The notes below the pieces were generated by a model. The model ran no database searches. It was not told where the DNA came from and saw nothing but the letters and a program-made list of their open reading frames with translations. DNA of 59,164 nt, counting the filler, from Dugesia japonica (Eukaryota), in NCBI GenBank assembly GCA_001938525.1. It is 5 parts of 5 records of this genome, joined end to end, with 100 filler letters (N's around TTAATTAATTAA, not from the genome) between each part and the next. Parts side by side here need not be neighbours in the genome. Positions count along the whole stretch, not along the records: positions 12,333 to 24,699 come from MQRL01584451.1; 4 more parts are not named here. The stretch is one strand, 5' to 3'. The position numbers and the translations under genes are program-made. Of the stretch, positions 12,603-46,448 are shown one piece after another (within the stretch, counting starts at the first letter, position 1; every line of letters begins with the position of its first letter).

Positions 12603-12963
12603 TTACAAAAGATCTATCGCCTCAGAGTTAAACTACTACGCGGGCTCGTCGTTCAAAAATTCAAACGCGGCGGAATCATCATCACTGTTACAAGCGGCTT
12701 AACTCTCAATTTCCAAGCCTTTATTTGGTTCCGCAATATATAGCTTCAGGAAATTTACCTAATTACATAGTTGATTGTTGGTGTGGTTTAAGATTTCCAT
12801 CTGTTTTTTAAGTACGATCTCAAGCTTTTTTATCAGGTTATTTTTTGTGAAAGATACTTAAGAAGTGATCGTTCGCATTTCTTGGAAAAGTGAATCTATA
12901 TAATAAACTTTGTTAACAGTTTATGACATCGACGTAGGGAATTTGGCAAACCGACTCTGGGCA
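12603..12963 (-). pseudogene. LTR cassette block D' (coiled coil + acidic tail)
   Basis: CTTCTTTAG|TG then PRVGLPNSLRRCHKLL...LLKYLSQKNNLIKKLEIVLKKQ...DDSAAFEFLNDEP..FNSEAIDLL*; homologous to 44471-44853; internal stops. Confidence 0.85.
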
Positions 12964-13089
12964 CTAAAGAAGAGGAGATGAATAAAGTAAATCAATATTA
13001 AAAATAATTAAAACACTACAATGTTAGATAAGTATGATATTTAACAGAACAAGTTAACATTGACATGTATTTTTCTGAATGGTATAATT

Positions 13090-13415
13090 AAATTTCTATT
13101 TTGGGTCGCTTTATCTAATAGTAGAGGTTCCACTGGAATACGCTTGCGCAACTCTAACAAATCGGTTACCAGTTTCTTTTCACGGTCATGGAGAGACCGG
13201 CTAACCTCGGCGAAAAACTCGAGTTGTCGTTTCCATACTTGCTCCTGGTCATATGGCCTTTGGCCTCGAGCCTATATTTTTTACATCGCTGTTTAGTTCG
13301 ATTGGTTTTAGTATTTTCTGCAGCCTTTTAGTAGAGATCCCATGTCATGTCTATGTCTTCGCTATCCTCTATCATTTTTTATGAAGAGCGACGGAACAGG
13401 AATGCGAAGTAGACA
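13090..13415 (-). pseudogene. LTR cassette block C'
   Basis: TCTTTTCAG|TG then KKMIEDSEDIDMTWDLY...EQVWKRQLEFFAEVSRSLHDREKKLVTDLLELRKRIPVEPLLLDKATQ; homologous to 43968-44328. Confidence 0.85.
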
Positions 13416-13884
13416 CTGAAAGAGACAATGATTAAGAGATCGTAAAAGATACTCAATTAATTTTTTAAATGTAACACGCATTTTCTACAAAAAGTTAAAT
13501 CAATCGTGGTTAAAGATTTAAATTATCCAGATAGAAGAAATAGAACTGAAATGAGACTTCAAGAACGCCTAATTTATTTATACGGAACAATGAATTAATG
13601 ATAGCAAAAGATAATGCATAACTTGTATGTGGATAATGATAGAACATTGAATATTTAACTCTGAACGAAATTACTTTTCAATGTGTGGATTTATTAATTA
13701 AATTAAAGATAGAATGAAATATTTTGAAAATAGGAAATTTTCGACCAACTTAGACTATCAAGAATGAAGCAAAACTAAATTTATATAAAAATTACATTGA
13801 ACTGCAACGACAAGGATCACTAGTGATTCCCCGGATAATCCTACATGTCAGGTGAAGAGGCCGGAGTGAAAGTTGGCTCGGTAG

Positions 13885-14075
13885 TCAGATAGGGCCACCG
13901 CTGATAAAACCAGCATTCGGTGGTGTCAAGCTGTCGTTGAAAGATGGCCTTGGGTGGGAGGAGGTTTTCCTGTCCACTGGAATTCCCACATTCCTGTTAA
14001 AGGGGTTCTGAATGCGACGAAACAATACTAGACTCGTGGCTTCGACCAAAACTACCTGCCATCTGGATTTAGTCA
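13885..14075 (-). pseudogene. LTR cassette block B'
   Basis: TTGTTATAG|TG then TKSRWQVVLVEATSLVLFRRIQNPFNRNVGIPVDR, versus WDVTLDTRSGLTTFKKFRNLYNQDAGILVDR at 43407. Confidence 0.75.
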
Positions 14076-14214
14076 CTATAACAAATAAATGAGACGATTA
14101 TACATAGTTGAAATAGAAGATTTTATGAATTTAAAACATGAAAAAAATAACATCAAATTTAAAGTGAAATATATTTGTAATGCAAGGTTAATTTATGTAT
14201 TAATAAGGGTCTGT

Positions 14215-14460
14215 TCATCATTTGTTAACAGAGGGTTCCAGATGAAACATTTCGGCAAAGCATGACAGATTGGTTTCGTCTGGGTCCTCAATTCGCCCCA
14301 AAGGTAGCTTATTAACAATCAGTTGTGGTCGTTACACTATTTCTCTTTCACGACGGATCCATCGAAGGTGGTGAGCAGAGTACGAGTGTTGGGGTTTTAC
14401 CTTAGGTCGGTTAATTTTTTATATCACTAAATCTAGAGGTCGAATTTTGTGTAAAATTTA
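14215..14460 (-). pseudogene. LTR cassette leader remnant and block A'
   Basis: LHKIRP and the donor AAG|GTAAAACCCC (14400), then HLRWIRRERE...EDPDETNLSCFAEMFHLEP; homologous to 42969-43258. Confidence 0.75.
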
Positions 14461-17301
14461 ATTTCGAGCCATTGACCTGGTAAAACCCGGCGATGAATTT
14501 GAATCTGGTGTCCCCAAAAAATCTAGATTTTCGGAATGGAGCCGTTGACTCGGAGTCCGAGTACAGACTCGCACTTCTTTGGTTTGGGTCGAAATTTCAT
14601 GATACTCGCTTGAATTACAAATTATACTTATTACTTATCTATCTTTAGCTTATTAGACTTCAGCTTATAACTTGATCATCAGGATTCTCGTATCAATTAG
14701 TGAAGTTCTAACTAATTAAAATCTTTTCGTATTAGCGATTAAACAATTTTAACGGAGTTTAATTACTGCTTGTAGGTTAAAAACTAATACCCTATTGTTT
14801 TACTGTTATAAGAAATAGCAGAATTCAACGAGTGAAAAAATTATATTCTAAATTTTATGGTTACTAATACATAAATTTAACAATTATAACAAACAACTAA
14901 CGTGGCTGAATCCCGATCTGGAGCAAGCACAAGTCCGAAATCGTTACACTCGATGAATAACAAAATTTACCGTTTTTAATCAATAAATTAAATTGTATTT
15001 GTTACACTGGGTAAATTAGCTNNNNNNNNNNNNNNNNNNNNNNNNNNNNNNNNNNNNNNNNNNNNNNNNNNAATAACAAAATTTACCGTTTTTAATCAAT
15101 AAATTAAATTGTATTTGTTACACTGGGTAAATTAGCTAAATTTTTTATGAAAATGCATCGGTATATATACCGGTTTATCTTCCCACCCCCATTCCGTATA
15201 TTGGTTATTCGGAGTCTTACAATTTTTCTGACGTTTCTATTGGCTTGAACGTCTCGTGAGTTCTTTTTATTGGTGGTTATTTTAGGATTTCCAAATTATT
15301 GGTCAATCTTCAAACCCTTATAACTTTTTTCCTTTTCTTGCCATGATTTTCTTACTCTGATTTTTTAATTCACCGATGTTTTCTCGATCAGAAACTTTTA
15401 AATTGATAATTTTGGCACCACCGGAAGTCGTCGTTTTTGCCATTTTTCACGAAATGATTATTTTTCTTTTAAAAATAATTTATTTTAAATTNNNNNNNNN
15501 NNNNNNNNNNNNNNNNNNNNNNATTTATTTTATTTAAATAAATAAATTATTTATTTTATTTTCTTGGTGCATCTTAATTAAGTGTTTGTTTCTTTGTTTC
15601 TTGATTAATTTTTTAATCTAATTTCACTGTTTTCTTCTATTAATTAATTCATTTAATTAATTTTTTATTACTAATATATTATATCCATGTGATTTTCTTG
15701 ATTTCGACTAATGCAATAATGGTTAATCATTAGTTTTTTGTCGTCCTGCCACATCTTNNNNNNNNNNNNNNNNNNNNNNNNNNNNNNNNNNNNNNNNNNN
15801 NNNNNNNNNNNNNNNNNNNNNNNNNNNNNNNNNNNNNNNNNNNNNNNNNNNNNNNNNNNNNNNNNNNNNNNNNNNNNNNNNNNNNNNNNNNNNNNNNNNN
15901 NNNNNNNNNNNNNNNNNNNNNNNNNNNNNNNNNTTGTTTGGATTACCGCTTCTTTACTTTGTTGGCTTTTTATTTCCTCGTTATCTCCTGCTGTATTTTT
16001 AGTTCTTGCGTCCTTCACACGAATTTTGGCCTTCTTATCCAATTTTGGCTTTCGTCATTCTTCTCTCAAACTAGATTGTGCCCTTCTTGGATCCGATTTC
16101 TTCATTTTCTTTTCTTATGTAGATTTTTCGAATTTCATGCTTACTCACGTCATTTTACCCACCTCAGGCTGGTGTTTCACCCCAACACTAGGAATAACAC
16201 TAAAAAGGCAATGATAAAATTTCGAAACTGAAAAGGTCGGTTAAGTAACTATGAAAAATTGCTGGAAACTTGATTTTAGGAATCAAAATAATAGTGATTA
16301 TGAATAGAAGAATGACGGATAAATTTAATTTACGCTAAATCAATAATATTGCCAGCGCCAACTGCTGGGCGCAAAAGGACCACCGTAACGATAGACATAC
16401 TAGTTGAAATCCTCAAAGGAGGTTCGCAAGTACATTAGTATTAATTGTAGTTGTAGCATCGTCACAGGTTAATAATTTCAATATTAATCAGTAGGTTGTT
16501 CCTGATAGTAATAATAACAAAGGCAATAATAATGATAATTATAATAAATGTACGGGTAAACAAAGTATCATTGCTGACAACGGCACTAAGGGTAATCTCG
16601 ATGATAGAATCAACCCTGCAACCTGCCAAAAAGCCGTTCAAAGTAATTTTTTAATGTTTAATTTATATTTATTATATTTTAACAGTATTTCTGCTATAGA
16701 CAAAAGTTTAAGTTTTAAGTTTAAGAGCTACACTATTTAATATTGTAAGTTTTTTATTAATAAAAATTTCTGTATTTTTAAAATTTTTATTATGTAAATT
16801 AATTTTTAATGGTTTTTAATAATTATTAAGTTAAAATTTTTTGTAATAAAGTATATTTATATGAAGAATTTTAGATATTAAATTAGAGTAGAAGAAATTG
16901 AAAAAATTATATTAAACAATATTATTAAACAATTATTAAACAATTATTAAACAATTAAAAATAATAATTAAACAATTATTATTAAACAATTATATTAAAC
17001 CAATATTAAACAACTTTTAATCGGTACTTTACCAACTAATTTGTTTCAAGTCCATTTAATACATAAGAATTACTTTTAATTTAAGATTATCATTTTCTAA
17101 TACTTTTTATTGATTATAATATTGATTTTGATAAATAAATTTGTTTTGCAAGCAGTTTTCAGGAAATTTTTAAAAATGACTTTCTTTAATGGTTTTTACT
17201 GTTAAAGAATAATGAAAGCTATTTAATTTTTAGTGAAAATTCATTTGTTCATTTTCATAACAAATTTAGTTTATTGAAAAATTATTACTTTATTAAATAT
17301 A

Positions 17302-17643
17302 TCAAAAACTTTGAAATTCGAAAAATTCTGTTAATATTAGATCCTCATTTCGATTTGCTATAAATTTCGTTAACATGTTATTAATTGAAAATAATACTTT
17401 TGATTTCAACAACAAATTTATTCTATCTAAATTCAAAAAATTCAAATCCAAACTTTAGATATTTGCAATAGTTATTTTTGTTATCCAATACACTGTAGTG
17501 CACTCTGACAAAGACTTTTTAAAATTAAATTTAAAACGAAGAGTTATTAAACATCTAAAATTTTTAAGTTCAAAGACCAAAACTACTTATACATTTTTTA
17601 AAGGATTAGTTTGGTAAAATGTATACTTTACGAGAAAATTCAT
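17302..17643 (-). pseudogene. 113-codon ORF with two in-frame TAA, related to the repeats at 2330-3349 and 7130-7216
   Basis: TATAAAA upstream, AAAATG start, MNFLVKYTFYQTNPLKNV*VV..., ends TGA followed by AATAAA. A plus-strand frame is also nearly open, so the strand is uncertain. Confidence 0.35.
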
Positions 17644-19293
17644 TTTACAACCTTTATTTTATAGCTGTTAAACTTTTATAAACTTAATAATTTTTTGATA
17701 AAACTGTGTGTATGTATGTGTGTGCTTGCTGTGTGTTGGTTTATTTTTTCTTTCCTTTTTAGATTTCTATATTAAGTTCATCTATTAAACTTTTAAGTAA
17801 GATTTTATGTATATAAATTTAATTTTCTTATATTATAGGGATCCAATCAAAATCAAGCAATTTATTATAAGGTAAGAATTTGATTGTCACAATTCACTTG
17901 GTTAACTTTGTTTAGTGTAGTTATGCAGTCCATTACACACAACGTCTCTTATATGAAAGGCATTATCTGAAAAGTGTGTGTCGTAACTATCAACAGACTC
18001 TTCTGTAATGACTCATCCAGGCCAAACATATGTAACATCATTAATTTATCGTGGAGTTAAATTTTCCACCATATATGACTTACTTCGCTCGGAGCAAATC
18101 TCATATACAAAGAACAAAATGAGAAGTCGCTGTTCTTGTCCTATTTTGATTAACAGAGATACATGGTGAGATTACTGGAAATATTAAATCTATTAAATCT
18201 AGCAAGGAATTTCGGGCATTATGAGAGAACATATGCTGGGACGATCACTAGTTCTTTCTTTTCTCTCGTGGTTTGGATCAAGGATTTGCTTAGGAATAGT
18301 ATGGTTGCAACAGGAATGTGATATATTAATAACATAAGGGGGCGAGCGAGTTTGGAAATTTATTATTCCTCGTAACTGAGAAATCCCATTGATGAATCTA
18401 GGAACATGGCTATAAATTTTATAATAAATATAAAAATAAAGAAATATAAGAGTCTATTATTTTAATATATATTGATCGATTCAAAACGAACAATTATGAA
18501 TAAAAGATATAATTAAAAATTCATCTCACTTTTAAAGAGGAAAACTCTTTCGCTTTCTGCAACGGGTTTATCTTAAAAAATGACTCGATTTCGGTACAAA
18601 ATATTCTCTTCCCAATAGGTAAGTATTACTATGCTGCCACTAAATTTCCTTTTTCCTTGCTGATATATCCGATATAGAGATTTTTTCTTAAAAACTAGTC
18701 TATAGATTTTTTCGTAATAATAATTGCTGATTTCTACTGATTTTGGAGGGGGTTTTTTACCATTTTTGTGGCACAATATCAATGGCGAAGATAAAAATTT
18801 CTATGTAGATCGCCTCAAGCCAACAATCAATTCTATAGAAATTAGTCCATAATTCTGGTCGATGCAGTGTTGCGTCACAAATATCATTGGTTTTAATTAA
18901 CTATTTGTAATATTAAATAAACTTTTGAAATTCAAACCATGATGTTTATCTTATTATGAAAATGAAAAATAATTTAGAACCCAACAATTATTATAATAAT
19001 TATTATTTTAATTATTATTATTTTAATTATTATTATTATTTATAAATTTTATTATTAATATGGTTATAATTATAATTACATAATTATATATGTTATTACT
19101 TGAACGAAGCATTTTTTACAGCAAATCATGTATGAAATGTGTTCAGTTTTTTGTTCTGAGTTTAACGATACCAAACTTATTTCATTATCATAAATATTTT
19201 TAGTGTAAGAAAATTCTTTTTTCCAAAGTTGGACATGGTAACCGGTAATTTTCTATATTTTCAACTAAGCAAATTTATAAAGCAAATCCTATA

Positions 19294-19590
19294 CCATCGG
19301 TTCCCAAACTGTGGTGCTCAAACCACTGGTGATACGCAAACAGACGATAAGTGGTTCGCCAAAACATTATTTAATTTAAATATTTTTTATTTACCAAATT
19401 AATATTTAATTGAATTTCTAAATTAACCGTAAGCCTTAAATTAACGAAAATTTCACCAAATGTGAAAATATTTTGTGCACTGAAACCAGCACATTTAACT
19501 TAAATTTTGGGCAAAGAAAAAATAGGTAGTTCGCTAAATTTTTTTTGACCATTAGGTGGTACGTGAGCAAAGAAAGATTGGGATACCTTG
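19294..19590. mobile_element. Degenerate hAT (Charlie/Buster-type) MITE
   Basis: Ends CATCGGTTCCCAAAC ... ATTGGGATACCTTG resemble CAGTGGTTCCCAAAC TIRs. Confidence 0.5.
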
Positions 19591-19849
19591 TCCTGTATGA
19601 AATATGTTGCAATTGCAATCATAAAAAGTATTTACTATAAGTTTTTTATATAGCCTTATTAGTTATATATGGAAAAGTTTCATGCTTTTATGATTTTTTA
19701 AAGTAAAGTTCCACAGTTATGAATTTTTTTTAAAAATTCCCCACTTATGAATTATTTGTTAAAAAAGTTTCATATTTATTATTTCTTATAGAAAAATTAC
19801 ATACTTTTAAATTAATTAATTTTAATTAACTTATTTAAATTTTTGACAT

Positions 19850-20804
19850 ACACAGAAATATCAAGACTACAAAATTTCTTGCTAAATTTCAACACCGCCC
19901 AATCTCAAAATTATCAAGACTGTCCGATCTCTTGCAAAAATATTAAGACTGACCAATCCCATACAAAAATATCAAATCTACTCAAAAATACAATTATTTT
20001 TCATAGAACATCATTTTAAATAAATTTATCATTTTATTTAAAAATCAACATTTTTCAAAAAATTATTACGTCAACCACACCCCACAGAAAAAAATTCATT
20101 TAAATCTTATTATTAACAATAATGAATTACCTGTACACTCATACCAGTTTCCCTCGAAGGAAAAATTTCTTTAACCTCATTATACTACTTACAAAGATTA
20201 ATCAATCAAATTATCGACTAAAAATTCCTCAACTCACCACCACTTATACACTACCATACCTCCCATCACATCACTTTTTCAAAAAGCCATCACACACCAA
20301 AATCTGTCAACTACCAACAGCCCTATACCAATTCAAAAAATCAACGCGCGATAACTCGTACGATGTGCCAGTGCGCGACCCCCCTTGTATACAAACCATC
20401 CATCCTACCCCATAAGGCCTTTAGACAATGTATGGACAGAACTTTAGTCCTGACACGCCCATATCATAAAACCCACATAAAAATTAAATCCAAGATCTAC
20501 AAACCTCCCTCTAATCCACTTTTACTCTTACACACACGCCAACATACACACATCACATACATTTAACATACTTCAATTTAACCACCTTTACTTTCCAAAC
20601 ACATAGAAATTTGAAAAAATAAAATTTTACCCGACTCGCCCGCCCAGGATTCAAAATTCATGATCCGATCAAAACTTTTATGATTTCATAAATCTTTTAA
20701 AAAATCCACGATGAAACATACCAAAATTCTGTCACAACTATATGATTTATCACGAGGGCTTCTCGATAATAGGGCATGTGCTAGTGCGCCACTATCTACC
20801 TACT
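19850..20804 (-). mobile_element. Polinton terminal repeat region (right end at 20804)
   Basis: Ends GTGCGCCACTATCTACCTACT, the reverse complement of AGTAGGTAGATAGTGGCGCAC; the inner boundary is approximate. Confidence 0.6.
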
Positions 20805-20973
20805 GTTCCTTGGAAGTTGATTTTATGGATCAACCAAAATATCTTATTCCTGTTGTTAATGTGCACATTAGATTGAAGANNNNNNNNNNNNNNNNNNNNN
20901 NNNNNNNNNNNNNNNNNNNNNNNNNNNNNNNNNNNNNNNNNNNNNNNNNNNNNNNNNNNNNNNNNNNNNNNNN

Positions 20974-21012: not shown

Positions 21013-23469
21013 TAAATATTTTCAAAATTACGAAAATAAACTAAGGCGTAGATCGAAAAAGTTTCAAAAAATGTTTCTTTTTAAAATTTTTATTAAAGTA
21101 ACAAAACAATTTTCAAAAAAAATGTTTATTATTTTTTTCCAAATTTTCGATTTTATCTTCTTCAGGAATTGCCAATTCCAGAAGAAGATAAAATCGAAAA
21201 TTTAGAAAAAAAATAAAAATCGTTTTTTTGGTTTTTGATAATAATTCTAATTTTTGACTTTTTCTTCGTCAGGAATTGACAAAAATTGAAAAGTCTTATC
21301 CTAACGAGGACAAAATCGAATATTAGAATTATTATCAAAAAGAAAAAACAAATTTTGATCGAAGCTTTTATTTTAATTAATAACAATAATATTAATAATA
21401 ATAATAAGAAGAAGAATAAGAATAATAATATACATTAATATGATTATTACTATAAATTTTTTATTAAGCGTATTATTTTGGTCTGTAAATTCAAAAGTTT
21501 ATACAAACTTATCTCAGTAAAATCAAAAAAGTAACTTTAATTATATTTTATATACACAATTTTGATGACAATACAAATGATTATTAAATTCTGTAATTTT
21601 CCATACTTATTAACTTATTTAATCATAAAATTTGGAAGTCATGAATATTAAATAATGATTCATTAATGAGGTTACTTTGATATTTATTCAATGAGATCAA
21701 GTAGAATAACTTTAATAGATAAATAAACAAATTCTGATCTGTTATTTAAAACGTTATTATGTAACAATTTCAGAAATATTTTATATTAAAATGTTTTTTA
21801 TCAGAATTTCAAAATCATTTTTTTATAATTCCAATATTTCAATAATTGTTTTTTGTTAAGAAATAATTAATTAATGGAAAAAAAAATATTTCTGCAGCTG
21901 TAAAATGAAACATAATTCTTTGTAAACAAAAATAATCGAACAGTAAATTTAGATTTTTAATTTTAAAAATTGAACTTAAAATAAAATTAAGTCTTATTAC
22001 TAATAGAAAAATATCTTTGAAAACAATTCATTTTTATCTATTTATTTTGTCAAAAATATTATCCATTGACTTGTTTTTCTTTAAAAAACTAAAGTAAACT
22101 TACAAAACACTTTCGACATTTATAAAATATATTAAACTAGTAATGAAGATGAACTTGTAATAACCTCATCATATCGATCAGATATTGAAATATGATCAGA
22201 ATATCCAATAAATAACATCTCAATTGTATTTCCTAAATAAAAGTGACTCTGAAACATTTTTGGATATAATAAATCAGAAGTCTCAAACGCAAACGATTTC
22301 TCGAACCGCTTTGGCTAAAGTATACTGGTCAACTAATGATGTAACTGTGTATGATGTAACTGTGTATGATGTAAAATGTAAACTTTAATACTTTATAAAG
22401 TGTTGATATATTTTTACTAGCCCAGCTAAATCATTGTGGGTCGCCTTTAAACACGATTTATTTCCTACCAGATAAAGGTACATCTCTACAAGCGTATATT
22501 TAGATTGTTTTATTTGCTTTTCAAGACGAATTCTACCAGTAACATAAAGCAAAAATAGTTTGACAAGTTCCACTTAACCAAATACTTTGCAATTTTTTCG
22601 CGTATTCCAAAATTACTTTCAATGATTTTGTGATGTTTTATTCATTGCTTGATGAATATTTCCAGCTGAGTATCTAAGTTCATCTTCAATTTTATATTTC
22701 ATCTTATTAAGTTTCCTGATGTTTTATTCTTTTATAATTACAATTATTGTGAGAATAATTGTTGGACTTAACCATTGATCGCATTTGAGATTTCATTAAA
22801 ATAAGATAAGGCTTCGATCCAAACAAAATTTATTTGTAAAAAAGTTCAAATTTTCGACAATAGTCTTCTTCAGGAACATTCTTTGTTCGTTGAAGTAGCA
22901 TGCATAGGTACATCCGAGCGCATCGGAAAAATACCTTTTCCTATTCCTAAAGACAAAGATTCCTAAAACTGTCATTCGTATTCAGTTTAAAAGAGCTGAA
23001 AATTTGAATTTTTTGTATAGATATATTATTTGAATCATTAAAGTTATTATTTAAATCTGTATACAACTAAACCAGCTTTACATCAAAATAATTGACAGCA
23101 AAATATCTTGTGTTAGCCGAGTTTTCTATTAAGTGAGTTTTTTGAACATAGATGCATATTAGTTTGCAAGAAGCAAAACGTGAAATGACAAAGCTTTAAC
23201 ACAACACATGCACACAAGTAACACTGTTAGATTAGCAGCTTGGATACTGCAAATTGAATAGTAAATGAATTTGAGATTTTTCCAAAAGTGAATTTTCTCT
23301 GTTTACATGATAACGCAACCCTAATATTAATGAAGCAATATCAAATTATACATTACAGATACGTTACAAACATAGCACTGTGTGTATATGTATTTGCGCG
23401 CGATTGTCTTTACCTAATGCTATAAGAATCTTATGCATTTACTGAAGTAGTCTGTATTTCCGAAATTTT

Positions 23470-24200
23470 TTTTTGTCCACTTGTTTCTCGCTTTGGTCCA
23501 CATTTGCATGTTATAAGACTTTAAAAAAATTCGCAGATTCTAATTTCTTTGTTTTCTCCTTAGTTGCTGTCGACACTACTTTAGTCTTCTGCCAAAGCTA
23601 TTAACTAACTCCTGTATCTGCCTCCACAAATTCTTTGCAAAGTATTCGCTCTCATATATACGTATATCTTTTCAGCTCTAACATGATATAATTACTGATA
23701 TATTTCTGTTTTACATATTTTGTCATCCAGAAATTTTATTTTCTTAATTGAATCTTTTTCTTCGGAAATGTTTAATTATTCTTTATCTTTTTCCAATGTC
23801 TTAATTTTTCCTTTCTTGGCATTACCGAGTGAGATTAGACATGGTACACATACTTAACATCTTGGTCTAGATAACATATTTGAATTTGCATGTTGAATTT
23901 CTCTTCATTATATAACATCATGTCTACACTACTGAGATAATTAATCCATGTCTGGAATTGTGACTTAATTGGTTTCTTCATCGTCATAATAGAAGCAAAT
24001 ATTTTATGATATATCTCAAGATTAAATCTTCAACCGTGAAAGTAAGGTTTGAAATGTATGCAGAAATATTGAACAGCGAATAACTCTGCTTCGTGCGAAA
24101 GTCATTGAATGTGATCCATTTTTAAAAATCTTTTCTTTTCCTTATTTATTTCTCTGTGACGAAATTGTATCAAAACTGGTGTCCGTATTTAATATAAACA
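23470..24200 (-). pseudogene. Gypsy pol fragment (RNase H / integrase)
   Basis: IMTMKKPIKSQFQTWIN, YFHG.RFNL and a GSH motif; many stops. Confidence 0.75.
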
Positions 24201-24699
24201 TTCTATTTATGTCTAGAAAGCACAATATAGGCGCAGTCATTAGAGCTTTCTCCAGATCCTCGAAGATATCGTTTATTTAATCTCTGTATTCTAACTTTTA
24301 GTAAACTGATTCGCCACACGACTGTTCTAAGATCCTGGATTTTCTTGCGCAATTTTCTAAAAAACTTTCTATCGTACAAATAAATACAAATTAATATAAT
24401 AAAATAAATAAATAAAAATAAGTAAATATAATAAATACAAATATCAAAGAAATTTCGTAACTTCTTGACACAGTTGGGTTTGTCAAATGGTCTTTGTAAG
24501 GTCGATTTCAAATGTCTGAGATTTTTTAATTTTTATATATATTACATATTTTAAAATTTATTTCTGAAACTTTCAAATATTATTGAAAAAAGTGAATATA
24601 AATTTTAAAATTGTAAGTAGTTTCTTCAGAATCTTTTATTTTGTTATTTGTTTCCATAAAAATTAACTCTTGAGTTGTAAAATAATATATTTCATAACA

Positions 24700-24799: not shown

Positions 24800-24829
24800 G
24801 GTGTTTATGTGCGCCACTATCTATCTACT
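24800..24829 (-). mobile_element. Polinton terminal repeat end abutting a Gypsy gag
   Basis: GTGCGCCACTATCTATCTACT, the reverse complement of AGTAGATAGATAGTGGCGCAC. Confidence 0.65.
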
Positions 24830-24844
24830 GTCATTTCAATATTC

Positions 24845-25400
24845 TTAGAACCTCAACAACAAAGAATGTCCGAAGTTATGGAGACGTGGTACAGAAGAGA
24901 CAGTTGAGAGATACAAATATGAAAATAAATAAATATGATGAAAATAGACATATTTCAGTTTGTTGGACATGCCAAAAGCCAGTGCATATAAACAGAGATT
25001 ACCAAATGAAAAGAAGTATTCAATGCTATGAATGTGGAGCATTGGGACACATGCGCAGAGAATGCCAAACAATTCATTGTGGAAAATGTCTTTAACGGGG
25101 ACATAAAACAGCAGAATATTACACAAATTTAGAAAGAAGACAAAAAGCGAGAATAGTTGCTAATATAAATTATAAGATACATAATAAATTTAGAAATTAG
25201 ATTAATGAGACTAGAGATTCCATGAACAGAGATCAACAGAGGAACAGGCGAAGCCTAAAAATTATAGCAGCAATTGGTTCTAATTGGGATACAACCGAAG
25301 AACAAGCAAATGCACTAACTGGATAATATGAAGCAATGGAGTATCCAAAAGGTTATGCTCCTTCCAGAGAGGTGATAGTTGGAGCAATATTATTAAGTAG
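24845..25400 (+). pseudogene. Gypsy gag C-terminus with three CCHC zinc knuckles
   Basis: CWTCQKPVH, CYECGALGHMRREC, CGKCL.RGH; ends YPKGYAPSREVIVGAI, paralleling the gag end at ~29020-29075. Confidence 0.85.
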
Positions 25401-30230: not shown

Positions 30231-30689
30231 GTAATATTTTAATTTTTATTTATATTATATCATATTATATTATATACAAATTTATATTTTAAAACATTTA
30301 AATATTATTCAAATACTACAGTAAAAAAAAGTACACAACAGATTTTTGAAATATAAAACATTTTAAAAATGCAAATTTATTTAAATAATTGCTATATTAG
30401 GTAAAATTGTAAAGGTATAAATGTCAACAATGATGATTCGGGAAATGCCAAGGCTCCAGTCAATGGGAAATGATAGGGGCTGTAAATTACATGTAAGATA
30501 TGATATTAATAATATGATGACTAGTATGTTTGAGTGTGATGATGATTATTTGAATAATTTTAATAATAGTATTAGTGTGATTGAAAATGACTCAATGATT
30601 GAATGTATATTTAAAAACGTGAATGATGAAAATAGATTTGCATGCTTGAATATTTGAATATTTTAAATTATTGTAACGTGATGGTAAAC

Positions 30690-31410
30690 CTTTTAATAAT
30701 ATTAAACTATATTCAAGTTATTTTAATGCATTATTTGATACTGGGTGGAAATAAGCGTAATGAGTAAAATTATAGCTATTGAAATGAAAAAATATCAAAT
30801 TTAATAATAAAAATGTTAATGATAAACAAATATTATGCGTAAATGGAAGGGCCATAAATATTATATATAAAGTAGATATAAATATTAAATTTAATAGGAA
30901 TCGATATTTTAAATTCTTTGCAAATAGAATTAATAGAAATAGATAGTATAAATCACAGCGTTTTAAATTAACAAGCTAAATTTTCAACAAATAATAAAAG
31001 TATTAATATTAGTAAACAATTAATTAAAAAATTAAAATTAAAAGACGATAATAGTATACATGATATTATTCTAAGGTATATTGGATTTTGTATAAACAAT
31101 AAATGGGATTTTACAGTTGCAATTTTTGTTAGAATAATTGTTGGACATAACCATTGATCGTTTTACAGAATTCGTTTAAAATTAAGCTTCGATTAAAAAA
31201 AAAGTTTCGATCAAAATTTTTTGCTTTTTTATTTAAAAAAAAATTTTAATCGAAGCTTTTATTTTAAATGAATAAATGGGATATTGGTAAACAGATATTT
31301 TAAAACATAAAATATAAACCGATTGGGAACCGATATTAATGAAAGCTAGAAAGCAGCCGATGCACTACGAAGAAAAAATAGTAGAAATTATATATAATCT
31401 AGAGGAAAAT
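30690..31410 (+). pseudogene. Highly decayed Gypsy protease/RT-start fragment
   Basis: ALFDTG at ~30728 and KWDIG..IF KH.I..IG.PI.MKARKQP at ~31275-31360. Confidence 0.55.
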
Positions 31411-31429
31411 GAGTAGTTAGATACTTCAG

Positions 31430-32270: not shown

Positions 32271-32274
32271 CTCA

Positions 32275-36999: not shown

Positions 37000-38881
37000 A
37001 GTTACTATGTCATCTCTGTCCTAATGGAATTTACAATATCGAGAATTATATTTAACAGTTATAGAGAACTTATTTCAATCTCAATATCTTCGTACAAGTT
37101 AATTGGAATTTTAATCAAGTTTAGAAAAGTCTCTTAAAGTGATTCCTTCACTGTGCAGTTGGGTAAGGATTATTATAATCACTTTATTAGATAATAATGA
37201 TAGCCGGCTAGATGGATATAATCAGCATAACTGGATATTAGGTATTTTATGGTGATAGTGCGTTGATATTTCACAGATCCCGTCAATGACAACTATATCT
37301 ACATATTTTAACTACAGAGTCAAATAATTCGTTATGGAATTAACCGTATGCACGGGACATATATTCATTGCAACCTGGGAATCGAATGACATTCTTATTG
37401 ATATTTAAATTGTCTCACTGAACGAAATTATGTATGCAATAAAATTAATTATGTCAATCGTTTTCTTGTTCATTAAATAATCAGTGAATTTGTACCTATC
37501 TGAAAAAGGGATATTCCAAAACAATTTTTTTATCCTTGGATTAACTGTTATATAATCAATCATTCATTAGTCTCCGATTTTATGATACTTAGTGATTAAC
37601 ATATCTCCGCTTAACTCTGATTGCAATTAAATAGTTATAAAACATTAAATTTTAGATAAATATTGTTTTTTAAATAGAGGTTAATCAATGAAGTAAAATT
37701 TAGTTTGACGAAATCTAAAAGTTTTAATTTTGGTTAATTTAGTAACGAAATATAATTCTACATTTATGACAGATAAATTTTATAAATTTAACTTAATATC
37801 ATTAATGAAATTTTAATTTGACATTTACTAAAGATAAAATTTGTATTTTCTTATTCACACACTTAACACATAAAATAAATATAAAATAATCAATTACTTA
37901 TAAATATTCGATAAGATTGAGACAAAGTGAATCTTGCTGCAACGGGTTCCGGACTAATTTATGGTGAGTTCCTTCTTGTTAATATACTGATTTCTTTGGG
38001 TAATAATTTAGTTTCCTTCTGTAATTCTAAAAAATAATGAGTGTTGATGAGAGGAACTTAATCGGGTGTATCTTACAAACTTCCAAAGTTGATGTTGACT
38101 CAAATTTCCGAGATGACGTTTATTTTAACTGATTTTGCTGGATTCGGTGGTAGTGGTTATAGAGATTTCTTTTTCTATAATGAGCCTTTCGCAAAGTTAT
38201 ATTTCGTTGGATGATTTTTAGCTGGTAGCAACTTAGAAAATTTTTTCGTAAATCTAACCGTTTTGTAACTTGAAAAAATTGTGTTGTTTTTACTTGAAAG
38301 TTGAGGGTCCTTTTATAGGATTTTCTGGACACCCCAACGGCTCTTTTCTGGTTCTATTAGTGCTAGCACCGATTTTCAGAATTTTTCTACAAATTTCAGT
38401 GCCATGATTCGCAGTTATTTTNNNNNNNNNNNNNNNNNNNNNNNNNNNNNNNNNNNTTTTATTTTCTGACCGCTGATTGGTCGAATCTTAGGATCCCTCC
38501 CATACCCCTCTGGAAGGTGGTACGTTTTTTCTTTTTAGGGTCTGAATTGCACTTGGTTATTTTCCGCTCAATTTTTCTTGTTGGAGTCTTTTCTGATAAT
38601 CAGGGCCAGAGATATCCGTAAAAAACAGATTTTTATCTAATTTCATTTGATTTTTTGTTTAAAATTAATTAATTTTTCCATATTAATTAATTATTTTCTA
38701 TAATATTTTTCTTTATTAATTCTTTTTATTTATTAATTTTTTCTCAATTAAGGATCATATGCTGCTTCTATTTTCCTTGCATCTTCTTTATTTTAACTTC
38801 ATTTCTTTTTTATGGTTGCTTTTTTGTTTTATTTCCTTCTTTGGTTTATTCTCTTTTTTTGGTGGGTGTTTCACCCCAACA
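37000..38881 (-). mobile_element. 3' LTR (truncated) of the minus-strand Gypsy element
   Basis: TGTTGGGGTGAAACACCC starts at 38881, directly after the pol end and a purine tract (AAAGGAATATTAGGGATAT); homologous to 40176-41150; the left limit is approximate. Confidence 0.8.
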
Positions 38882-41800
38882 ATATCCCTAATATTCCTTT
38901 TCTTTAAAACTTTTGAGCCATTCAACATTTCTTATAAAATTTCTTCCCTTTATATCTGTAATTTCATAACTTCGTTCATGTAATCTTTTCGAAACTTTAT
39001 ACGGTCCATTATATCTTTCTACATTTTTATGTCGATTATCTTTTTTTACTAATACTGTGTCATCAACTGCAATGTTCTAATTCTCGAATGATGATCAACT
39101 GTGTTTTTATTATTATCTGTTATTTCTTCGTGAATAGGATTTCTATCTTGCATTTTATCCGTTTTATGCCATTCTGTTCTGTGTATTTTAAAACGAAAAA
39201 CCACTTCGACTGGACTCTTTTTACTTGTTTTTTGAGTTGAAGCATTCATGGAAAATTCTATTTCTGGAATCAAAACTGCCCATTTTTTGTTCTTATTATT
39301 CGTTACAGAAGTGTATTTATACAATATCTTATTGTTCTAAATTGTCGTTCTATTAATCCATTAGCGCTGTGGTGATATGGACTAGAATAAACTACTTGTA
39401 TCTTATATTTATCAACACATTCTTTAATTATTTTTTATTCAAAACTTTTACCGCAGTCTAAATATATTTTACGAGGTGCACCATATTTTAGAATCCATTT
39501 CTTAACCAAAGTATCAGTTATAGTATTTTCATCTTGTTTAGCGATTGCTGTTAATGAAATATACCTACTAAAATGATCTATTATTGCTAATAAATATTTT
39601 TCTTGATGCCAAGTTGACCACAAATATCAATATAAATATTCTAAAATGGCTTTGAAGATGTTTTTGGAATTATGTCATCTTTCGTTCCAGTAGTTATTAT
39701 TTTTGTTTTTGGGATGCTTCACATCCATCAATAATTTCTTTCACAAAGCTTGCCAAACTTTTCATATCAAAATTATTTTTAATATATGATTTTACTTTTT
39801 CACATCCAGGATGACATAAAATAAAATGAGTTTTTTTAATAAATTCAGCTTTCTTAATTTCTGGTATCCATATTTTATTATCTTTCGTTCTTATAATATC
39901 TTTTACTGACTGAAGATAACCCTTTCTAGTTTTTCCAATTTGCTTTTTTATTTCTTCTATTTCTTGAACTCCATGTTGCCATTCTTTTCCAACATTATCA
40001 GTCATTAATGTCAAGATACGAGTTTTTAACTTTCCTGATTTGGCTTTTGGATAACTCATTTGACACTGGGAACAAGCTGTACATGATTGTCGAGATAATG
40101 AATCAGCATTTTCATGTAAAATTCCCAGTCGATATTCCATCTTAATATCTAAACTGCTTAAGAAGTTTGTCCATGTGTTGGGGTGAAACACCCACTAAAG
40201 TAGAGAATAAATCAAGAGAGGAAATAGAGCACAAAAAGCAACAATAAAAGGAAATGAAATTAAAATGAAGAAGGTATAGAAGAAATGGAAGCTATTTATG
40301 ATCATTGATTAAGAAAATTTTAACAATTAAAAAGAAATAACCAGAAAAAATAATATGGAAAATAATTAATTAATACGAAAAAATTAATTAATTTCAAACA
40401 AAAAATAAACAAAATTAGTTAAAAATATGTTTTTTACCAATAACTCCGGGCCAAGACCTCAGAGAAAGTTCAAATAAGAAAAATTGAACAGAGAACCAGT
40501 CGGTGCAATAAGAATCCAAGAAAGAAAAAGCGTACCACCTTCCAGANNNNNNNNNNNNNNNNNNNNNNNNNNNNNNNNNNGACATCCAGAAAATAAAAAT
40601 AAAACAAAGACACCGATGTCAGGTGCTCCTCTAAAAATAGTTGCCAATCATGGCACCGAAATTTACAGAAAATTTCAGAAAATCCGTGCTGGCACCAATA
40701 AGATCGAAAAGAAGCTGGTCTAAAAATACCAGCAAATCTGAACATAGTTGGGGGTGTCCAGAAAACCATATATAAGGAACCCCAGTTTTAGACGGAAAAA
40801 ACTCAACAAAAACAAAAAACCAACTGATAATAAATCTTAAGTTCGACGTAATAAAAGCTTTAAGGATTTTTCTGTTGATTGATCTAAAGAAATTAATCAG
40901 TTATCAGTTACTGCGCAGCAAGTTGCCGAATAATTGAGAAATCGCATCAAGTGGGATAATTGTTAAACAGAACAAGCTTAATTAATTTTTCAGAACAATA
41001 ATTAAAGAAGTTCGATTCAAGAAGTTTTTTCTATTCGAAAACTAACAAGGCATATTTTACCAGTACCCGTTGCAGAGCAAAAAAGAAAACCGGCCCGAAT
41101 TAATTTATATTTTGTGGAAACCTTTATAAGTAATTATTTATTTCTGTGTTTTATGATGAAATATGCGTAAATGAATTTAGTAACTATATCTTTGATAAAA
41201 TAAACATTTAATCTTAATTTAATAAACCTTTGAGTATGTGTCTAAATCATTTTAACCAAATTATTTATATAGTTGACCAAGAAATAACATTTAATCGGAT
41301 TTCACTAAATAATCAAGTTTGCGAGTAAACAAAAAAACTCTGATACTTAATTCCCTCAAATGTATTCATATAATAAACATTAAACAAACTTTGAATCATA
41401 TTTCATGTGATGATTGAATGTAGGTGTTTTTAACTAACATTTCCCAACGAAAATTATTATTTTCACAAGCCTTACAACTTTATTTTTATAAGATTGATTA
41501 CCGATATGAATAAAATAATAAGTCATAATAAATGTATTCTGAATAAAAAAATCTTGTTTCATAAATGAACATGACAATATTTCGATACAATAAAGACTGA
41601 CCTGAAATTTNNNNNNNNNTAATCTCATTTAAAGAAAACCCACGATGATAAATATAACTCATAATGAGTAAATTTGATCCGCTGGAGTAAAATTCATTGT
41701 TACCTTGATTTCTTTGGTGAATAACGATGGCATATTAATTTGATTAAAATTTCCAATGTGGATTTAACTAACAAATTTTTGTCCAATACGATTAAATACT

Positions 41801-42660
41801 CCATCAAAAGCATAACTATAGATAATGCCCCTATTCCTCATTAATTGTAGTCTGAAATTTGATGGACTTGTCCTGTTCTATCATCTACTCCAGATGGCAT
41901 ATTTTTTCTTACTAAACTGAAAATGTCGTAATCTGATAACAAGCACCACAATGCCAAATTGTTGTAAATTAACTGTGTGTGTTAACAACTCCAACTGGTA
42001 CGATAATCGACCCACACACACTGTTTTAAACACACCCGCCACTAGTTGGAAATGATGGGAATTGAATTACTCTATATTAAGCCATGGCCTTGAATGGTAG
42101 GCATGGTAACATAAACAATATATTTTATTAAATTTTGTTAGTTCGATTTTCTTGTAACATTTTCTATATCTACTTAATTATAAATATTCATTGGCAAGTT
42201 GCAATAAAATACCACTGGTCAACGTAAGGACTCGGTACCTCTTTGAAATAAAACCTAGACGGTTACCAACTCTGAACTCACCAAGTGATCAATAAAATAT
42301 ATTACTTGGTAACAATTAGAATACTAAATATCGTTGTTAAGCATAAGATGCACAACCGTAATTGGGTGAAATCCCTCACATCATTCATGAATTAATTGAG
42401 TGAAATTATTGATTCTTGTATGCAATTGGGTTATTAACAGATTATGTGGATAAAGGATTAATTCACCCTCTCAGTATCACCATTATAATTCTTCATTTCA
42501 ATGCATGTTATCAATCTGATTAGCGATTCTTATTATGAACATTATGACTTCTCTGATTATTATTGTGGCCTTTGTGGTTGGGAGCAATTATGAGTATTGC
42601 TACAATTTTGTCATTTTCATAAGACGATAGTTTTTCTCATTATGATAATTAAGAATAGCC

Positions 42661-42693
<33 letters not shown>

Positions 42694-42968
42694 NNNNNNN
42701 NNNNNNNNNNNNNNNNNNNNNNNNNNNNNNNNNNNNNNNNNNNNNNNNNNNNNNNNNNNNNNNNNNNNNNNNNNNTGAGTATTTTTGCCTTGATTGTTAG
42801 AGACATTATGGTTGGTCCTACGCGTATCATATATCACTCCCAGTAGTCCTGCCATGATACTGATTCCTATTCCGTGGATATCCAATAAGAAATATAAATT
42901 CTGAGTAATGGCAAACTGAATATTCCTGTTAAGGTATCACCGTTACCAGCAGCGCTAGCCCCAGTATC

Positions 42969-43258
42969 ATGATTAAGGTCCATAAGATTCTACCCAGTAA
43001 ATTTATTAACGGTAAAACCCCCCAACCTCGACAATTATGAAATCATACGGTAATAAATTTTCTATTTTAGCAATGACAGCAAGACTACGCAACATGCTGC
43101 GATGGATCAAAAGACAGCGGCAATCCACTAGACTCAAACCATTAATTGCTCATTATCTAACACAGGGAGCAGTGGAACACCCCGACGAGACGGACCTTCA
43201 ATGTTTCGTCGAGATGTTCCCGCTCGCACCACGAGTCGATCTAGATAAGGGAGAATGA
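42969..43258 (+). CDS. LTR cassette leader exon (42969-43011) and terminal exon A (43071-43258)
   Basis: MIKVHKILPSKFIN G|GTAAAA phase-1 donor, 59-nt intron, TATTTTAG|CA acceptor in frame with MTARLRNMLRWIKR...PDETDLQCFVEMFP; TGA; AATAAA at 43303. The true start may lie further upstream. Confidence 0.7.
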
Positions 43259-43396
43259 TCAGCCCACTTGACGTTTAAGCATCCCTTTGATTTTTTTTTG
43301 CAAATAAAATGGTGTGTTGAGTTAAATTGAAATAATTGTTATATTCACCGTTCTTAATTCATCATATCGTCGATTTGTATAATTTTTCTTTTATAG

Positions 43397-43811
43397 GCTT
43401 TTAAAAATGGAATATGTCTGGGACGTGACCCTGGATACTCGATCTGGTCTAACCACATTCAAAAAATTTAGGAATCTCTATAATCAGGATGCAGGAATAC
43501 TAGTAGATCGCTCCAATGTATCTCCAGAGCAAGCCGAGTATGATCGCCACTGGGATGAGACGGAGCGAGCCGCTTACTATCATTGGCGTGGACCTAGAAG
43601 GGGACAATTAAGCTCTTCTCCCATATCGGCGGATGCATCCCTNCCACGCATAGATCGGGTGTGGTCGGAAAGCCCAACAGTAGTAGATCTGACCACAACC
43701 CAGCTACCTCCGTATTCGCAGCTTTCAGCGTTCATCCAGAATAATTTGTGGATTGAACGGAATGCCCTTAATTACGGGAACAACGAGAATGCGACTCAGG
43801 AGGATTTGTAG
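43397..43811 (+). CDS. LTR cassette exon B (134 aa from the ATG at 43407), unknown function
   Basis: Acceptor TTTTTATAG at 43396, open frame, TAG stop, AATAAA at 43888; homolog at 13885-14075. Confidence 0.7.
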
Positions 43812-43967
43812 CCCTCTCCTTTTTGTGTTTCTGAATGTGGTTTAGTTTAGTAGAAAAACTTAGGTGTCTTCTTTTGAGTCTGATTAGAATAAATAATTCT
43901 TTATGCGTTTCATAATTTAATTATATAAACCCTTATCGATTATTAATTGTATCTTGCTTTCTTATAG

Positions 43968-44328
43968 TGCACTCCTCGCTAAATCGCCCTCCGGCCCCCA
44001 CTAAAAAAATTCGTGAAGATAGTGAGGACATAGAGATGTCATGGAGTCTGTATCGTCTAGCTAAACGGCGGTGGGAAGCCGACGTAGCGACCGCGAATGC
44101 AAAGGTAAAAAGGTACAAAACTAAATGTACCAACATTCGCGAGGAAATGCGTCTTGTACAGGAACAAGAACGAGCCTGAAAAACCCAAGTCGAATCATTC
44201 GCAGAGATTATCCGGTCCAGCCATGACCGAAAAAATAAACTGGTGAAAGACATTTTGTTGTTAAAAGATAAGTCTTATCTGGAGCCCCTTATGATAGACA
44301 AGGGCACACAGACTAAGAATGCTTCCCG
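43968..44328 (+). pseudogene. LTR cassette exon C, coiled-coil protein with DKGTQT motif
   Basis: Acceptor TTTCTTATAG|TG; one TGA (44177) where the homolog has TGG; runs into an N gap. Confidence 0.8.
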
Positions 44329-44470
44329 NNNNNNNNNNNNNNNNNNNNNNNNNCATCAATTTTATTTTGTTACTTGATTGTTTTGGGTTTTTAAAGTCTC
44401 TTTTTGTTAATGATAGAATTGGTGGAAATTTTTACTTAGCTCATGCTCACTTAATATCCTTGTATTTTAG

Positions 44471-44853
44471 TGCCTAGGATTCAATTACCTAATAGCATCA
44501 GGAGATGTCATCGTGTCTTACGCCGCCTCCTCATCGAACGTCATTTGAAGAGAAAAGCTGATAAGGCTCTGCTAAAACACCTAGAACAACGCGATCGATT
44601 AATTAAAAAACTCGACCTTGTTATAAAGAAACAAACGGATTGAGCCACCCAAACTAAAGCTTTGGAAGCTGAAAACAAACTTCTTCTGCAGCGCAAGATA
44701 GACTTTCTAAAACAATATATTGCTGACCAGTCGCTCCAGATTGGCAATCCAAATACTACTCAGTGGGATGAAGACGACGATATAGCCATGTTTAATTTCA
44801 TCACCACTACCCCTGACCAATGGCTAGATCCGGAAGCTGTCGATTTATTATAA
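44471..44853 (+). pseudogene. LTR cassette exon D, basic/coiled-coil protein with acidic-aromatic tail
   Basis: Acceptor TGTATTTTAG|TG; PRIQLPNSIRRCHRVL...WDEDDDIAMFNFITTTPDQWLDPEAVDLL*; one internal TGA (44641); AATAAA at 44868. Confidence 0.8.
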
Positions 44854-46448
44854 ATATGTTATTATTAAATAAATATTTTGATTAGAATAATAAAGACTTT
44901 TAATTATCCCAAAATAATAATAGGGAAAATTTATAGAACCCGAATCAAAGGTTTGCTGGTGGGCACCTCCCATTAGGATTGAGGTCAACCGCAGTAAACT
45001 GAAAGTCTACCATAGGGACGGTAGGATTAAATTCTTGAAAGGGTTCCCCTGAGAACTGTTTTTCCCCAGTCACTTTTCAAACTCAGGTAGAACCCCAACA
45101 CATGTCTGGAATTGTGAAGTAATCGGCTTTTTTGTAGATAACATAAAAGTAATAGCCTTATGATCCGTTCGAAGAAAAAATTATTTATCATACAAATAAT
45201 GATTGAAGTGTTGAGTGAAATAATAAATAGCTAACAATTCCTTTCTTGTAATACAAGAAACTCTTTCGTGCGAACTCATTGCATGTGATCCATAAAAAAT
45301 AAATCGTTCGTTACCATTTTCATCTAATTGTGAGAGTATTGCTCCAATTACATCAAAGCTAGAGTCCATGTCCAAAATAAAAGCTTTGTTGAAATCCGGA
45401 AACACTGGAATTTTCTGTAAAGCCATTTTTAATTAATTAAACGACTCATCACACTGATCAGACCAAATCAACTTTTCATTACCTTTACCACACAATGCCT
45501 CTAGAATTCTAGCCTTTTCTGCATATTTATTTATAAGTTTTCAATAATAATTACATAATTCTAAAAAACTTCTCAAACTCTTAATACATTTCGTCCTTTC
45601 AAATTTACTTATTGCTACAATTTTACTTTGATCTGTACGTATTCCCTCACTTGTAATAATATGTCCGAGAAATTTAACTTCTTTTTTCAATAACGAACAT
45701 TTGTCTGAATTAATTCTTAAACCTGCAGTTTTTATTTTACTTAACACATTATTTAAATGAATCATGTGCTCTTCCAAGGAATTAGAAAAACTAAGATATC
45801 ATTCAAATAAACCAAGGCTTTGACACCATTTATCTCGATTAATACTTTATTCATAAGTTATTGAAACCTTTCTGGAGCAGCAACATTACCAAATGACATT
45901 CTTGTAAAATAGAATTGTCCTAATTTTGTTGAAAATGCTGTTTTTTCTTGTGATTTTCATCCAATTCCACTTGATAATAAGCATTTCCAAGNTCAATTGA
46001 ACTAAAATATCGTGCACCAAGTAAAGTATCCAACAATTCTTCCACATTTGGCATCGGGAAAGTTTGTCTAACAGTTATTTTGTTTAGTTGTCTANNNNNN
46101 NNNNNNNNNNNNNNNNNNNNNNNNNNNNNNNNNNNNNNNNNNNNNNNNNNNNNNNNNNNNNNNNNNNNNNNNNNNNNNNNNNNNNNNNNNNNNNNNNNNN
46201 NNNNNNNNNNNNNNNNNNNNNNNNNNNNNNNNNNNNNNNNNNNNNNNNNNNNNNNNNNNNNNNNNNNNNNCTTCGGTTATTATCGAATGTTTTATCAAAT
46301 TTGTACATTCAATATCCCACGCGTCTACCATGAAAGCTGACTTGTTTTTAGTTATTATATGATATAATTCAGAATTTTTCTCTATTTTAAAAGTTTTTAT
46401 AGCCTTCTCAAATCTTTGCTCATCAGTTACTTCTTTACCAAAATTTGT

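Follow-up and report, generated by a model that had tools for sequence, protein, structure and literature searches.

In annotation, long terminal repeats (LTRs) usually count as non-coding sequence, and solo LTRs are taken for dead remnants. The locus described here raises the question of why two diverged LTRs of Ty3/gypsy type in the planarian Dugesia japonica hold the same row of four short coding blocks, and how these blocks might be read. The window, i.e., the whole stretch of DNA analyzed (59,164 nucleotides of assembly GCA_001938525.1, filler included), consists of five AT-rich scaffolds rich in transposon debris, with linkers of the form N44-TTAATTAATTAA-N44 in between. The composition agrees with what has been described of planarian genomes (PMC11410931). 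Copy 1 of the array (blocks A' to D') and copy 2 (blocks A to D) lie on different scaffolds of this window (Table 1). We are highly confident that the array is real and under selection, and just as confident that it sits inside a gypsy LTR. With moderate confidence, we further favor a reading in which the blocks are four small genes within the 4-5 kb LTRs of a group of Ty3/gypsy retrotransposons, expressed from the LTR promoter by one shared leader exon that donates an A.

Comparison of translated sequences (tblastx, 12333-15500 against the window) recovered seven collinear segments that link 12603-14367 (-) with 43097-44853 (+; sum E 6.8e-40), and the peptides that a previous sequence-only reading of copy 1 had listed for A, B, C and D are present in both copies. 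Across 286 sense codons, the copies are identical at 345 of 572 first and second positions (60%) and at 95 of 286 third positions (33%, with 26% expected if unrelated; Fisher p-value 4e-14), a contrast somewhat inflated by the choice of segments on protein similarity, which favors positions 1 and 2. The same contrast is seen within each block: A (60/94 vs. 18/47, p-value 0.0035), B (40/88 vs. 12/44, p-value 0.033), C (117/182 vs. 39/91, p-value 0.0006) and D (128/208 vs. 26/104, p-value 7e-10). Only 8 of 38 four-fold sites are identical between the copies. The ratio of non-synonymous to synonymous changes (dN/dS) for the pooled blocks is ~0.2 (LWL85, dN 0.51, dS 2.5; NG86 and maximum-likelihood estimates were saturated), and block C alone allowed a per-block estimate (0.23-0.34).

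At the DNA level, parts of B and D fail to align (scores reached by 6/200 and 71/200 shuffles, respectively), so that DNA conservation cannot account for this codon pattern. The spacers, already described as not visibly aligning, do not align beyond a marginal level (local DNA scores matched by 5, 9 and 174 of 200 shuffles for A-B, B-C and C-D), and the scores of the upstream regions were matched by 197/200 and 106/200 shuffles; GC content is 0.37-0.49 in blocks vs. 0.20-0.28 in spacers. The codon-position contrast and dN/dS thus support the purifying selection across two LTR lineages that the sequence-only reading had proposed. Its leader peptide HKIxP is not significant, the best protein alignment upstream of A being equalled in 99 of 500 shuffles, and the term “leader” should rather be applied to the non-coding first exon described below.

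As judged from the sequence, A-D is an array of four separate open reading frames (ORFs), each with its own stop, and not an exon chain. A, B and D are stop-terminated in both copies, as is C' (the end of C in copy 2 falls within an N gap), D is conserved up to its stop, and a search of the final 90 nt of A', A, B, C' and D, and of C up to its gap, found no phase-1 GTRA donor. If the blocks were instead exons of one gene captured from the host, the TG at their starts would complete a valine codon (G/TG, the slash marking a putative splice junction here and below). The common phase of all AG/TG sites would suit this, as would the alternation of GC-rich blocks and AT-rich spacers, which resembles exons and introns. 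We nonetheless consider a captured gene highly improbable: the stops that end A, B and D in both copies, together with the conservation of D to its stop, largely refute it, and 5 of the 6 internal block ends examined have no such donor.

DNA reads bear on the same alternative. In run X9, 5,519 contigs fell on copy 2, with a summed depth of 23,119 on the A core, 1,122-4,384 on B, up to 94,348 on C and 3,546-20,849 on D, and 214-710 on the spacers (302 as the value set against the A core; 11-47 for the long pieces listed). Depth of related pieces is 10- to 300-fold higher on coding blocks than on spacers, although such depth is no copy number and AT bias may contribute. This shows many related copies in which the coding cores, but not the spacers, have been kept, and speaks against a single-copy host gene. 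The possibility of such a gene, raised in the sequence-only reading as what would speak against the proposed selection, was not borne out, with very many related copies and no host homologue found in the searches. In copy 2, C and D each have one in-frame stop; these stops are absent from >99% of X9 depth, hence not shared by its relatives, and represent private damage; copy 1 is more decayed, with frameshifts in C' and D' and stops in all four blocks.

What are the units that carry the array? Copy 2 has TG...CA ends with short inverted termini and a CATG duplication on each flank, and interrupts, at the end of RNase H, a gypsy pol, whose flanks align with residues 345-805 and 796-1227 of protein P0002, the register being resumed. 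These ends, the duplication and the split pol identify copy 2 as an LTR. The first 17 nt of copy 1 (at 16187) are identical to the start of copy 2 and its tail aligns with that of copy 2 over 58 columns, the 3' tip being lost where the scaffold ends in an (AAT)n run (12333). The earlier interval of 12603..14460 does hold the blocks, but the LTR itself is larger, from 16187 to 12333. No purine tract was found upstream of copy 1 (7/24 purines). A third LTR (LTR 3) has the same 17-base start and 78% identity to copy 2 over 376 nt; its position past pol/integrase and a purine tract indicates that it is the 3' LTR of the element that hosts copy 2, and that the cassette is in sense to pol.

These LTRs have further features of their own. 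Between the donor-like site and ORF A, copy 2 is ~1.7 kb longer than copy 1, and this part (41130-42660, +) neither contains a long ORF nor matches any other part of the window. In the copy-1 leader, a 66-bp exact duplication across an N gap (14956-15137) is an assembly overlap artefact. Within ORF A', 14387-14405 (-) matches the LTR 3' tip (45082-45101, +) at 18/20 positions, and a motif similar to this tip precedes A in copy 2. At the scaffold end of LTR 3 are two stop-free frames, 35196-35462 and 35938-36228 (-; 89 and 97 amino acids, aa), the first with its own stop and an ATG 2 nt past an acceptor-like AG; without a Pfam match above cut-off, they are possibly cargo ORFs of another LTR family. 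Also in LTR 3, the 19 nt of 36974-36992 match the 5' part of copy 1 exactly, in opposite orientation; they adjoin a long pyrimidine-rich stretch and are perhaps a nested LTR fragment.

How could translation of these ORFs start? As previously noted for copy 1, AG/TG opens B', C' and D' (14075, 13415 and 12963), and it likewise opens C and D of copy 2 (43968 and 44471). All these sites are in phase with the conserved frame except that of C', which has a frameshift directly behind. A pyrimidine tract and YAG precede each block, including the ORFs with their own ATG. TG follows 48 of the 516 pyrimidine-rich YAG sites of the window, so that its presence in 3 of 4 genes has a chance probability of ~0.003. 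In copy 2, A and B have a contiguous ATG 2 and 10 nt past the AG, where A' (weakly) and B' have AG/TG, and this equivalence marks the AG/TG sites as protein starts. Joining to an exon that ends in A would give an ATG with A at -3 at all six AG/TG sites.

The sequence-only reading had left the TG to complete either a valine codon or a split start codon (A/TG). Block stops without a matching phase-1 donor, the ATGs of copy 2 and the A-ending donor-like sites upstream together favor the start codon over the valine, the splicing itself being a prediction. The acceptors might also receive the flatworm spliced leader by trans-splicing, as its terminal AUG can serve as a start codon (PMC9851317). This would be an extremely improbable arrangement, as the conserved frame calls for a single base ahead of TG and a whole AUG would shift the reading out of it, and a candidate donor exists in cis.

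This candidate is ATAA/GTAAT (ATAAGTAAT), of which the window has three instances, one in each LTR, in sense, past the TATA site and before the cassette (exon ends 14635, 41129 and 37898); when the copy-1 region was shuffled, 42 of 3000 trials produced a donor-like 9-mer common to all three LTRs. The TATA site of each LTR lies 12-14 nt past GGGGTG, a pattern derived from the three LTRs themselves and found at 4 distinct sites of the window vs. 0.07 expected, and in the first 1300 nt of copy 1 the promoter-like site is the single match to TATA[AT]A[AT]. The stretch from TATA to donor is free of ATG in copy 2 (361 nt) and in LTR 3 (420 nt), with an ATG density of 13-24 per kb on each side; background windows of like length are ATG-free in 23/1,936 and 12/1,875 cases. 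Among 295 TATA sites, 2 have an ATG-free run with A/GTAA at least 250 nt in, namely those of copy 2 and LTR 3. Identity between these two LTRs drops from 71-85% to ~50% near the TATA site, which we infer to be a U3/R border, as expected after template switching. Outside any recognized LTR, 1598-1629 (-) holds a GC-box-like run followed by a TATA-like site.

Put together, these signals suggest the following scheme. Transcription would start ~25-30 nt past the TATA site, ~600 nt into the LTR, which would place the array in R/U5 rather than U3. The non-coding leader exon, predicted to end in A, would be joined by alternative splicing to one acceptor per transcript, completing A/UG at acceptors beginning with UG, and the transcripts would end at an AATAAA past D. 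Unspliced genomic RNA has no AUG for C and D, so that these two would be made only from spliced RNA.

The same genes could also lie in U3, with a promoter past D and expression only from the 3' LTR, spliced from a donor close to where the genomic RNA begins, in the manner of retroviral LTR-encoded genes. There is precedent for a protein encoded in the LTR, the sag of MMTV (mouse mammary tumor virus; PMC11998498); RNA depth (see below) peaks at the last 90 nt of the LTR, and the start site proposed above is a prediction from sequence signals. We consider U3 genes unlikely, as the LTR itself has a TATA-like site, an ATG-free leader and an A-ending donor ahead of the array, both copies have AATAAA past D, and the RNA peak coincides with the highest DNA depth of relatives.

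Several observations weigh against expression through a shared leader exon. RNA was mapped on 42776-45160, a stretch of copy 2 and its flank that begins past the donor, and three runs gave 11, 245 and 30 reads, 10, 182 and 26 of which were <90% alike. Most fell on the LTR end and the pol flank; depth was at most 4.5 on A, at most 3.3 on C and 0 on D, and no RNA joint was seen in this donor-less stretch in any of the three runs. No run recorded as RNA was among those listed with copy 2. We therefore conclude that transcription of relatives of A and C is low, and that of copy 2 itself minimal. For the donor, three matches to ATAAGTAAT is a chance number (mean 2.8), only their placement being special, and with copy 1 and copy 2 alone a shared donor-like 9-mer arose in 107/3000 shuffles. 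The criteria and thresholds for donor, promoter and leader were set after looking, and copy 2 and LTR 3 are related, hence not independent. Donors usually carry a base other than A at -1. Two short upstream ORFs (2 and 4 codons) lie in the leader of copy 1, at the fourth promoter-pattern site (1598-1623, -) an ATG comes within 60 nt and a comparable donor is lacking, and B' has a phase-1 GTGA near its end. A match to A-D was sought in LTR 3 and none was found in the 3.7 kb present, before the LTR is cut by the scaffold end; no complete element with copy 1 or copy 2 was seen, nor a cassette-bearing LTR joined to gag-pol. Lastly, no homologue, family or fold supports a function for A-D.

Two of these points would also fit other arrangements. 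Without a split codon, C and D (and B') would start at GTG itself, on unspliced or separately initiated RNAs; AG/TG does include a GTG in the conserved frame, and no junction appears in the RNA mapped. We see such GTG starts as distinctly unlikely, given the pyrimidine tract and YAG before each start, even where an ATG is present, and the 37 ATGs between the leader and 42660 of copy 2, past which scanning on unspliced RNA would not reach the array. The unit might otherwise be a separate element, non-autonomous or of another mobile type, with borrowed LTR ends and the four genes as cargo, as no gag-pol was seen beside an LTR with A-D and the pol-attached LTR 3 shows none in what remains of it. 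Copy 2, however, shares the similarity given above, a promoter-like site and the donor with LTR 3, whose missing part lies past the scaffold end, and its TG...CA ends and 4-bp duplication fit insertion by an integrase; a separate element is thus improbable. A locus with two cassette-bearing LTRs around gag-pol and a primer-binding site was not found in the collections scanned.

What the four ORFs would encode was addressed through their sequences, fold models and homologue searches. A combines a basic Trp/Arg helix with an acidic PDET...C..EMF motif, and B a short conserved N-terminus (a predicted hairpin, of low confidence) with a variable Ser/Pro tail, its fold model being unusable (predicted local distance difference test, pLDDT, 33). 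C is helical and ends in DKGTQT (copy 2) or DKATQN (copy 1), which resembles the TQT-anchored LC8-binding motif (PMC10046861) and may be a candidate of this kind. D has a basic N-terminus, a long helix and a conserved acidic-hydrophobic tail; its model is one long helix (residues 7-90, pLDDT ~95), with no match at E<=0.001 among viral structures. D was also considered as a bZIP protein and rejected, there being no bZIP Pfam match.

None of A-D reached the Pfam cut-off (best ADIP, E 0.001, for C and LRRFIP, E 0.005, for D), Rfam gave 0 matches, and the homologue search with A no candidate. In the atlas, the best score for A was 0.77 and C had none. Of the 3 candidates for C in a 5.8-billion set, none was significant. 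A single match of C among 1.84 billion representatives (E 1e-4), to a helical-repeat protein, was rejected as compositional. The one of 235 stretches that passed a metagenome scan (L001), a 68% GC bacterial contig with a match to one short helical stretch, was also rejected. Viral contigs matched neither C (0/11) nor P0002 (0/4); five matches to the 17-nt LTR start were found among them, with no further similarity to copy 2 reported. As the ATG of such genes would exist only after splicing, they would be invisible to ORF callers and repeat libraries, which may explain the lack of database matches.

That the products are regulatory for the element seems to us possible but tentative. They would be nuclear regulators, most likely including an export factor for unspliced RNA, as are Rev, Rem and Cer1 CERV. 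Since the 5' part of the RNA has a donor and four acceptors, the array would be inherited only if this RNA is packaged unspliced, hence the export factor. More tentatively still, every LTR of the lineage, solo ones included, may be a self-contained unit of one promoter, one leader and four alternative acceptors, with splicing-gated regulators that cannot be read from packaged genomic RNA; one of these would be a Rev-like export factor or transactivator, and thousands of solo LTRs would supply the proteins in trans. If so, a regulatory program of complex-retrovirus type would be built wholly inside the terminal repeat. If the LTRs do hold conserved genes expressed by splicing, the element would possess a level of regulation comparable to that of complex retroviruses, and proteins may still be produced from its remnants. 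Exact junctions follow from the predicted donor and acceptors, which makes the scheme testable in RNA data from transposon-derepressed animals.

Each part of this scheme has a precedent. MMTV sag is one gene, located in U3 and read from the 3' LTR, and HIV (human immunodeficiency virus) nef overlaps the 3' LTR. The likeness to sag is that of a protein gene inside the LTR under selection (PMC11998498); the difference is that here there are four genes, predicted to lie past the promoter, and that promoter, leader, ORFs and poly(A) signal would all be present in a solo LTR. The source cited for sag describes MMTV Rem as serving the export of unspliced RNA. For the split start codon predicted here, the closest case is the env of springer-subclade errantiviruses of Drosophila, likewise Ty3/gypsy elements, in which splicing completes the Met start as AU/G (bioRxiv 10.1101/2023.08.03.551782). 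There, one env ORF past pol receives AU, whereas here a single A would be supplied to several small ORFs within the LTR. No envelope ORF follows pol here, which ends 10 nt before LTR 3, and A-D (61-134 aa) have no env match.

Conserved small accessory ORFs are known from the MDG1 group of Drosophila (412, Mdg1, Stalker, Blood), in which sORF1 and sORF2 lie upstream of gag with low dN/dS, on a short transcript ending at an early poly(A) site, sORF1 being nuclear and sORF2 a membrane protein (PMC11952523). Set side by side by description, that group has two ORFs, upstream of gag and described there without splicing, and ours four, inside the LTR. A functional model for the putative export role is CERV of Cer1, a Caenorhabditis elegans gypsy element, a spliced lineage-specific accessory protein with a leucine zipper, required for unspliced RNA to be exported (PMC10309623). 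Unlike A-D, CERV is one 517-aa protein, from gag-region exons and an ORF past pol, and thus outside the LTR. Accessory ORFs of plant LTR retrotransposons, proposed to have a retroviral-accessory-like role, are like A-D conserved and without homologue, and are located in the internal region (PMC7264820).

Among planarians, the giant Burro/GYPSM1 gypsy elements have accessory ORFs and long repeats in an AT-rich genome, and a 4,873-aa gag-env-pol polyprotein with env and apoptosis domains and with BIR, BCL2, MATH and dUTPase among its domains, and the Burro passages make no mention of ORFs inside LTRs (PMC6431247). The pol beside LTR 3 differs in matching the plain P0002 (1,227 aa, with matches only to protease, reverse transcriptase and RNase H as well as integrase), the part upstream lying past the scaffold. 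Passages from three further sources (PMC13524379, PMC8532177, PMC11410931) likewise do not mention ORFs inside planarian LTRs. Overall, sag, the MDG1 sORFs, the AU/G env and CERV are precedents for the parts, and for their combination, a multi-gene LTR array with one leader, none was found in the literature searched; the supplements of Grohme et al. (2018) or Repbase may already annotate the ORFs.

Table 1. Features of the three LTRs and of the host element, with positions counted along the window; a slash marks a putative splice junction.
Feature	Position	Strand	Remarks
LTR copy 1	12333..16187	-	~3.85 kb present; starts TGTTGGGGTGAAACACC; decayed
Promoter-like site, copy 1 (GGGGTG, spacer, TATATA)	15162..15189	-	putative function
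Donor-like site ATAA/GTAAT, copy 1	14630..14638	-	exon would end in A at 14635
ORF A'	14218..14426	-	weak in-frame AG/TG; conserved core 14224-14367; two in-frame stops
ORF B'	13792..14075	-	AG/TG start; one in-frame stop
ORF C'	13041..13415	-	AG/TG start; two frameshifts, one in-frame stop; DKATQN near end
ORF D'	12603..12963	-	AG/TG start; one frameshift, five in-frame stops; ends DLL-stop
AATAAA, copy 1	12527..12532	-	71 nt past D' stop; putative poly(A) use
LTR copy 2	40176..45100	+	4,925-bp solo LTR; TGTTGGGG...CCCCAACA ends
Promoter-like site, copy 2	40751..40774	+	
Predicted non-coding first exon, copy 2	40795..41129	+	putative start, from TATA site; no ATG; ends in A
Donor-like site ATAA/GTAAT, copy 2	41126-41134	+	exon end A at 41129
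ORF A	43073..43258	+	61 aa, open; own ATG 2 nt past acceptor-like AG
ORF B	43407..43811	+	134 aa, open (one N); own ATG 10 nt past acceptor-like AG
ORF C	43968..44328	+	AG/TG start; one in-frame stop; DKGTQT near end; 3' end within N gap
ORF D	44471..44853	+	AG/TG start; one in-frame stop
Two AATAAA past D stop, copy 2	44868..44894	+	putative poly(A) use
LTR 3, 5' part	37893..38881	-	3' LTR of host gypsy element; starts 38881
Promoter-like site, LTR 3	38312-38335	-	
Donor-like site, LTR 3	37893-37901	-	exon end 37898; leader before donor has no ATG
Purine tract before LTR 3	38882-38905	-	19/24 purines
Host Ty3/gypsy pol (reverse transcriptase, RNase H, integrase)	38891..46448	-	Pfam; collinear with P0002; interrupted by copy 2

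Elsewhere in the window, decayed gypsy pol remnants akin to P0002 lie at 29096-32418 (+), 23716-24514 (-) and 5538-6121 (-), and a zinc knuckle at 24802-25092. Adjoining a gypsy pol remnant, a TATA-like site at 32642-32648 (-) is followed by 320 nt without ATG. Fragmented transposase-like frames at 27178-28661 (-) are presumably hAT-like, as judged by eye from their motifs. Short fold-back repeats resembling miniature inverted-repeat transposable elements occur in several copies (21116-21416, 34118-34347, 54617-54710 and 33535-33601), and a 41-bp tandem array occupies positions 1-560.

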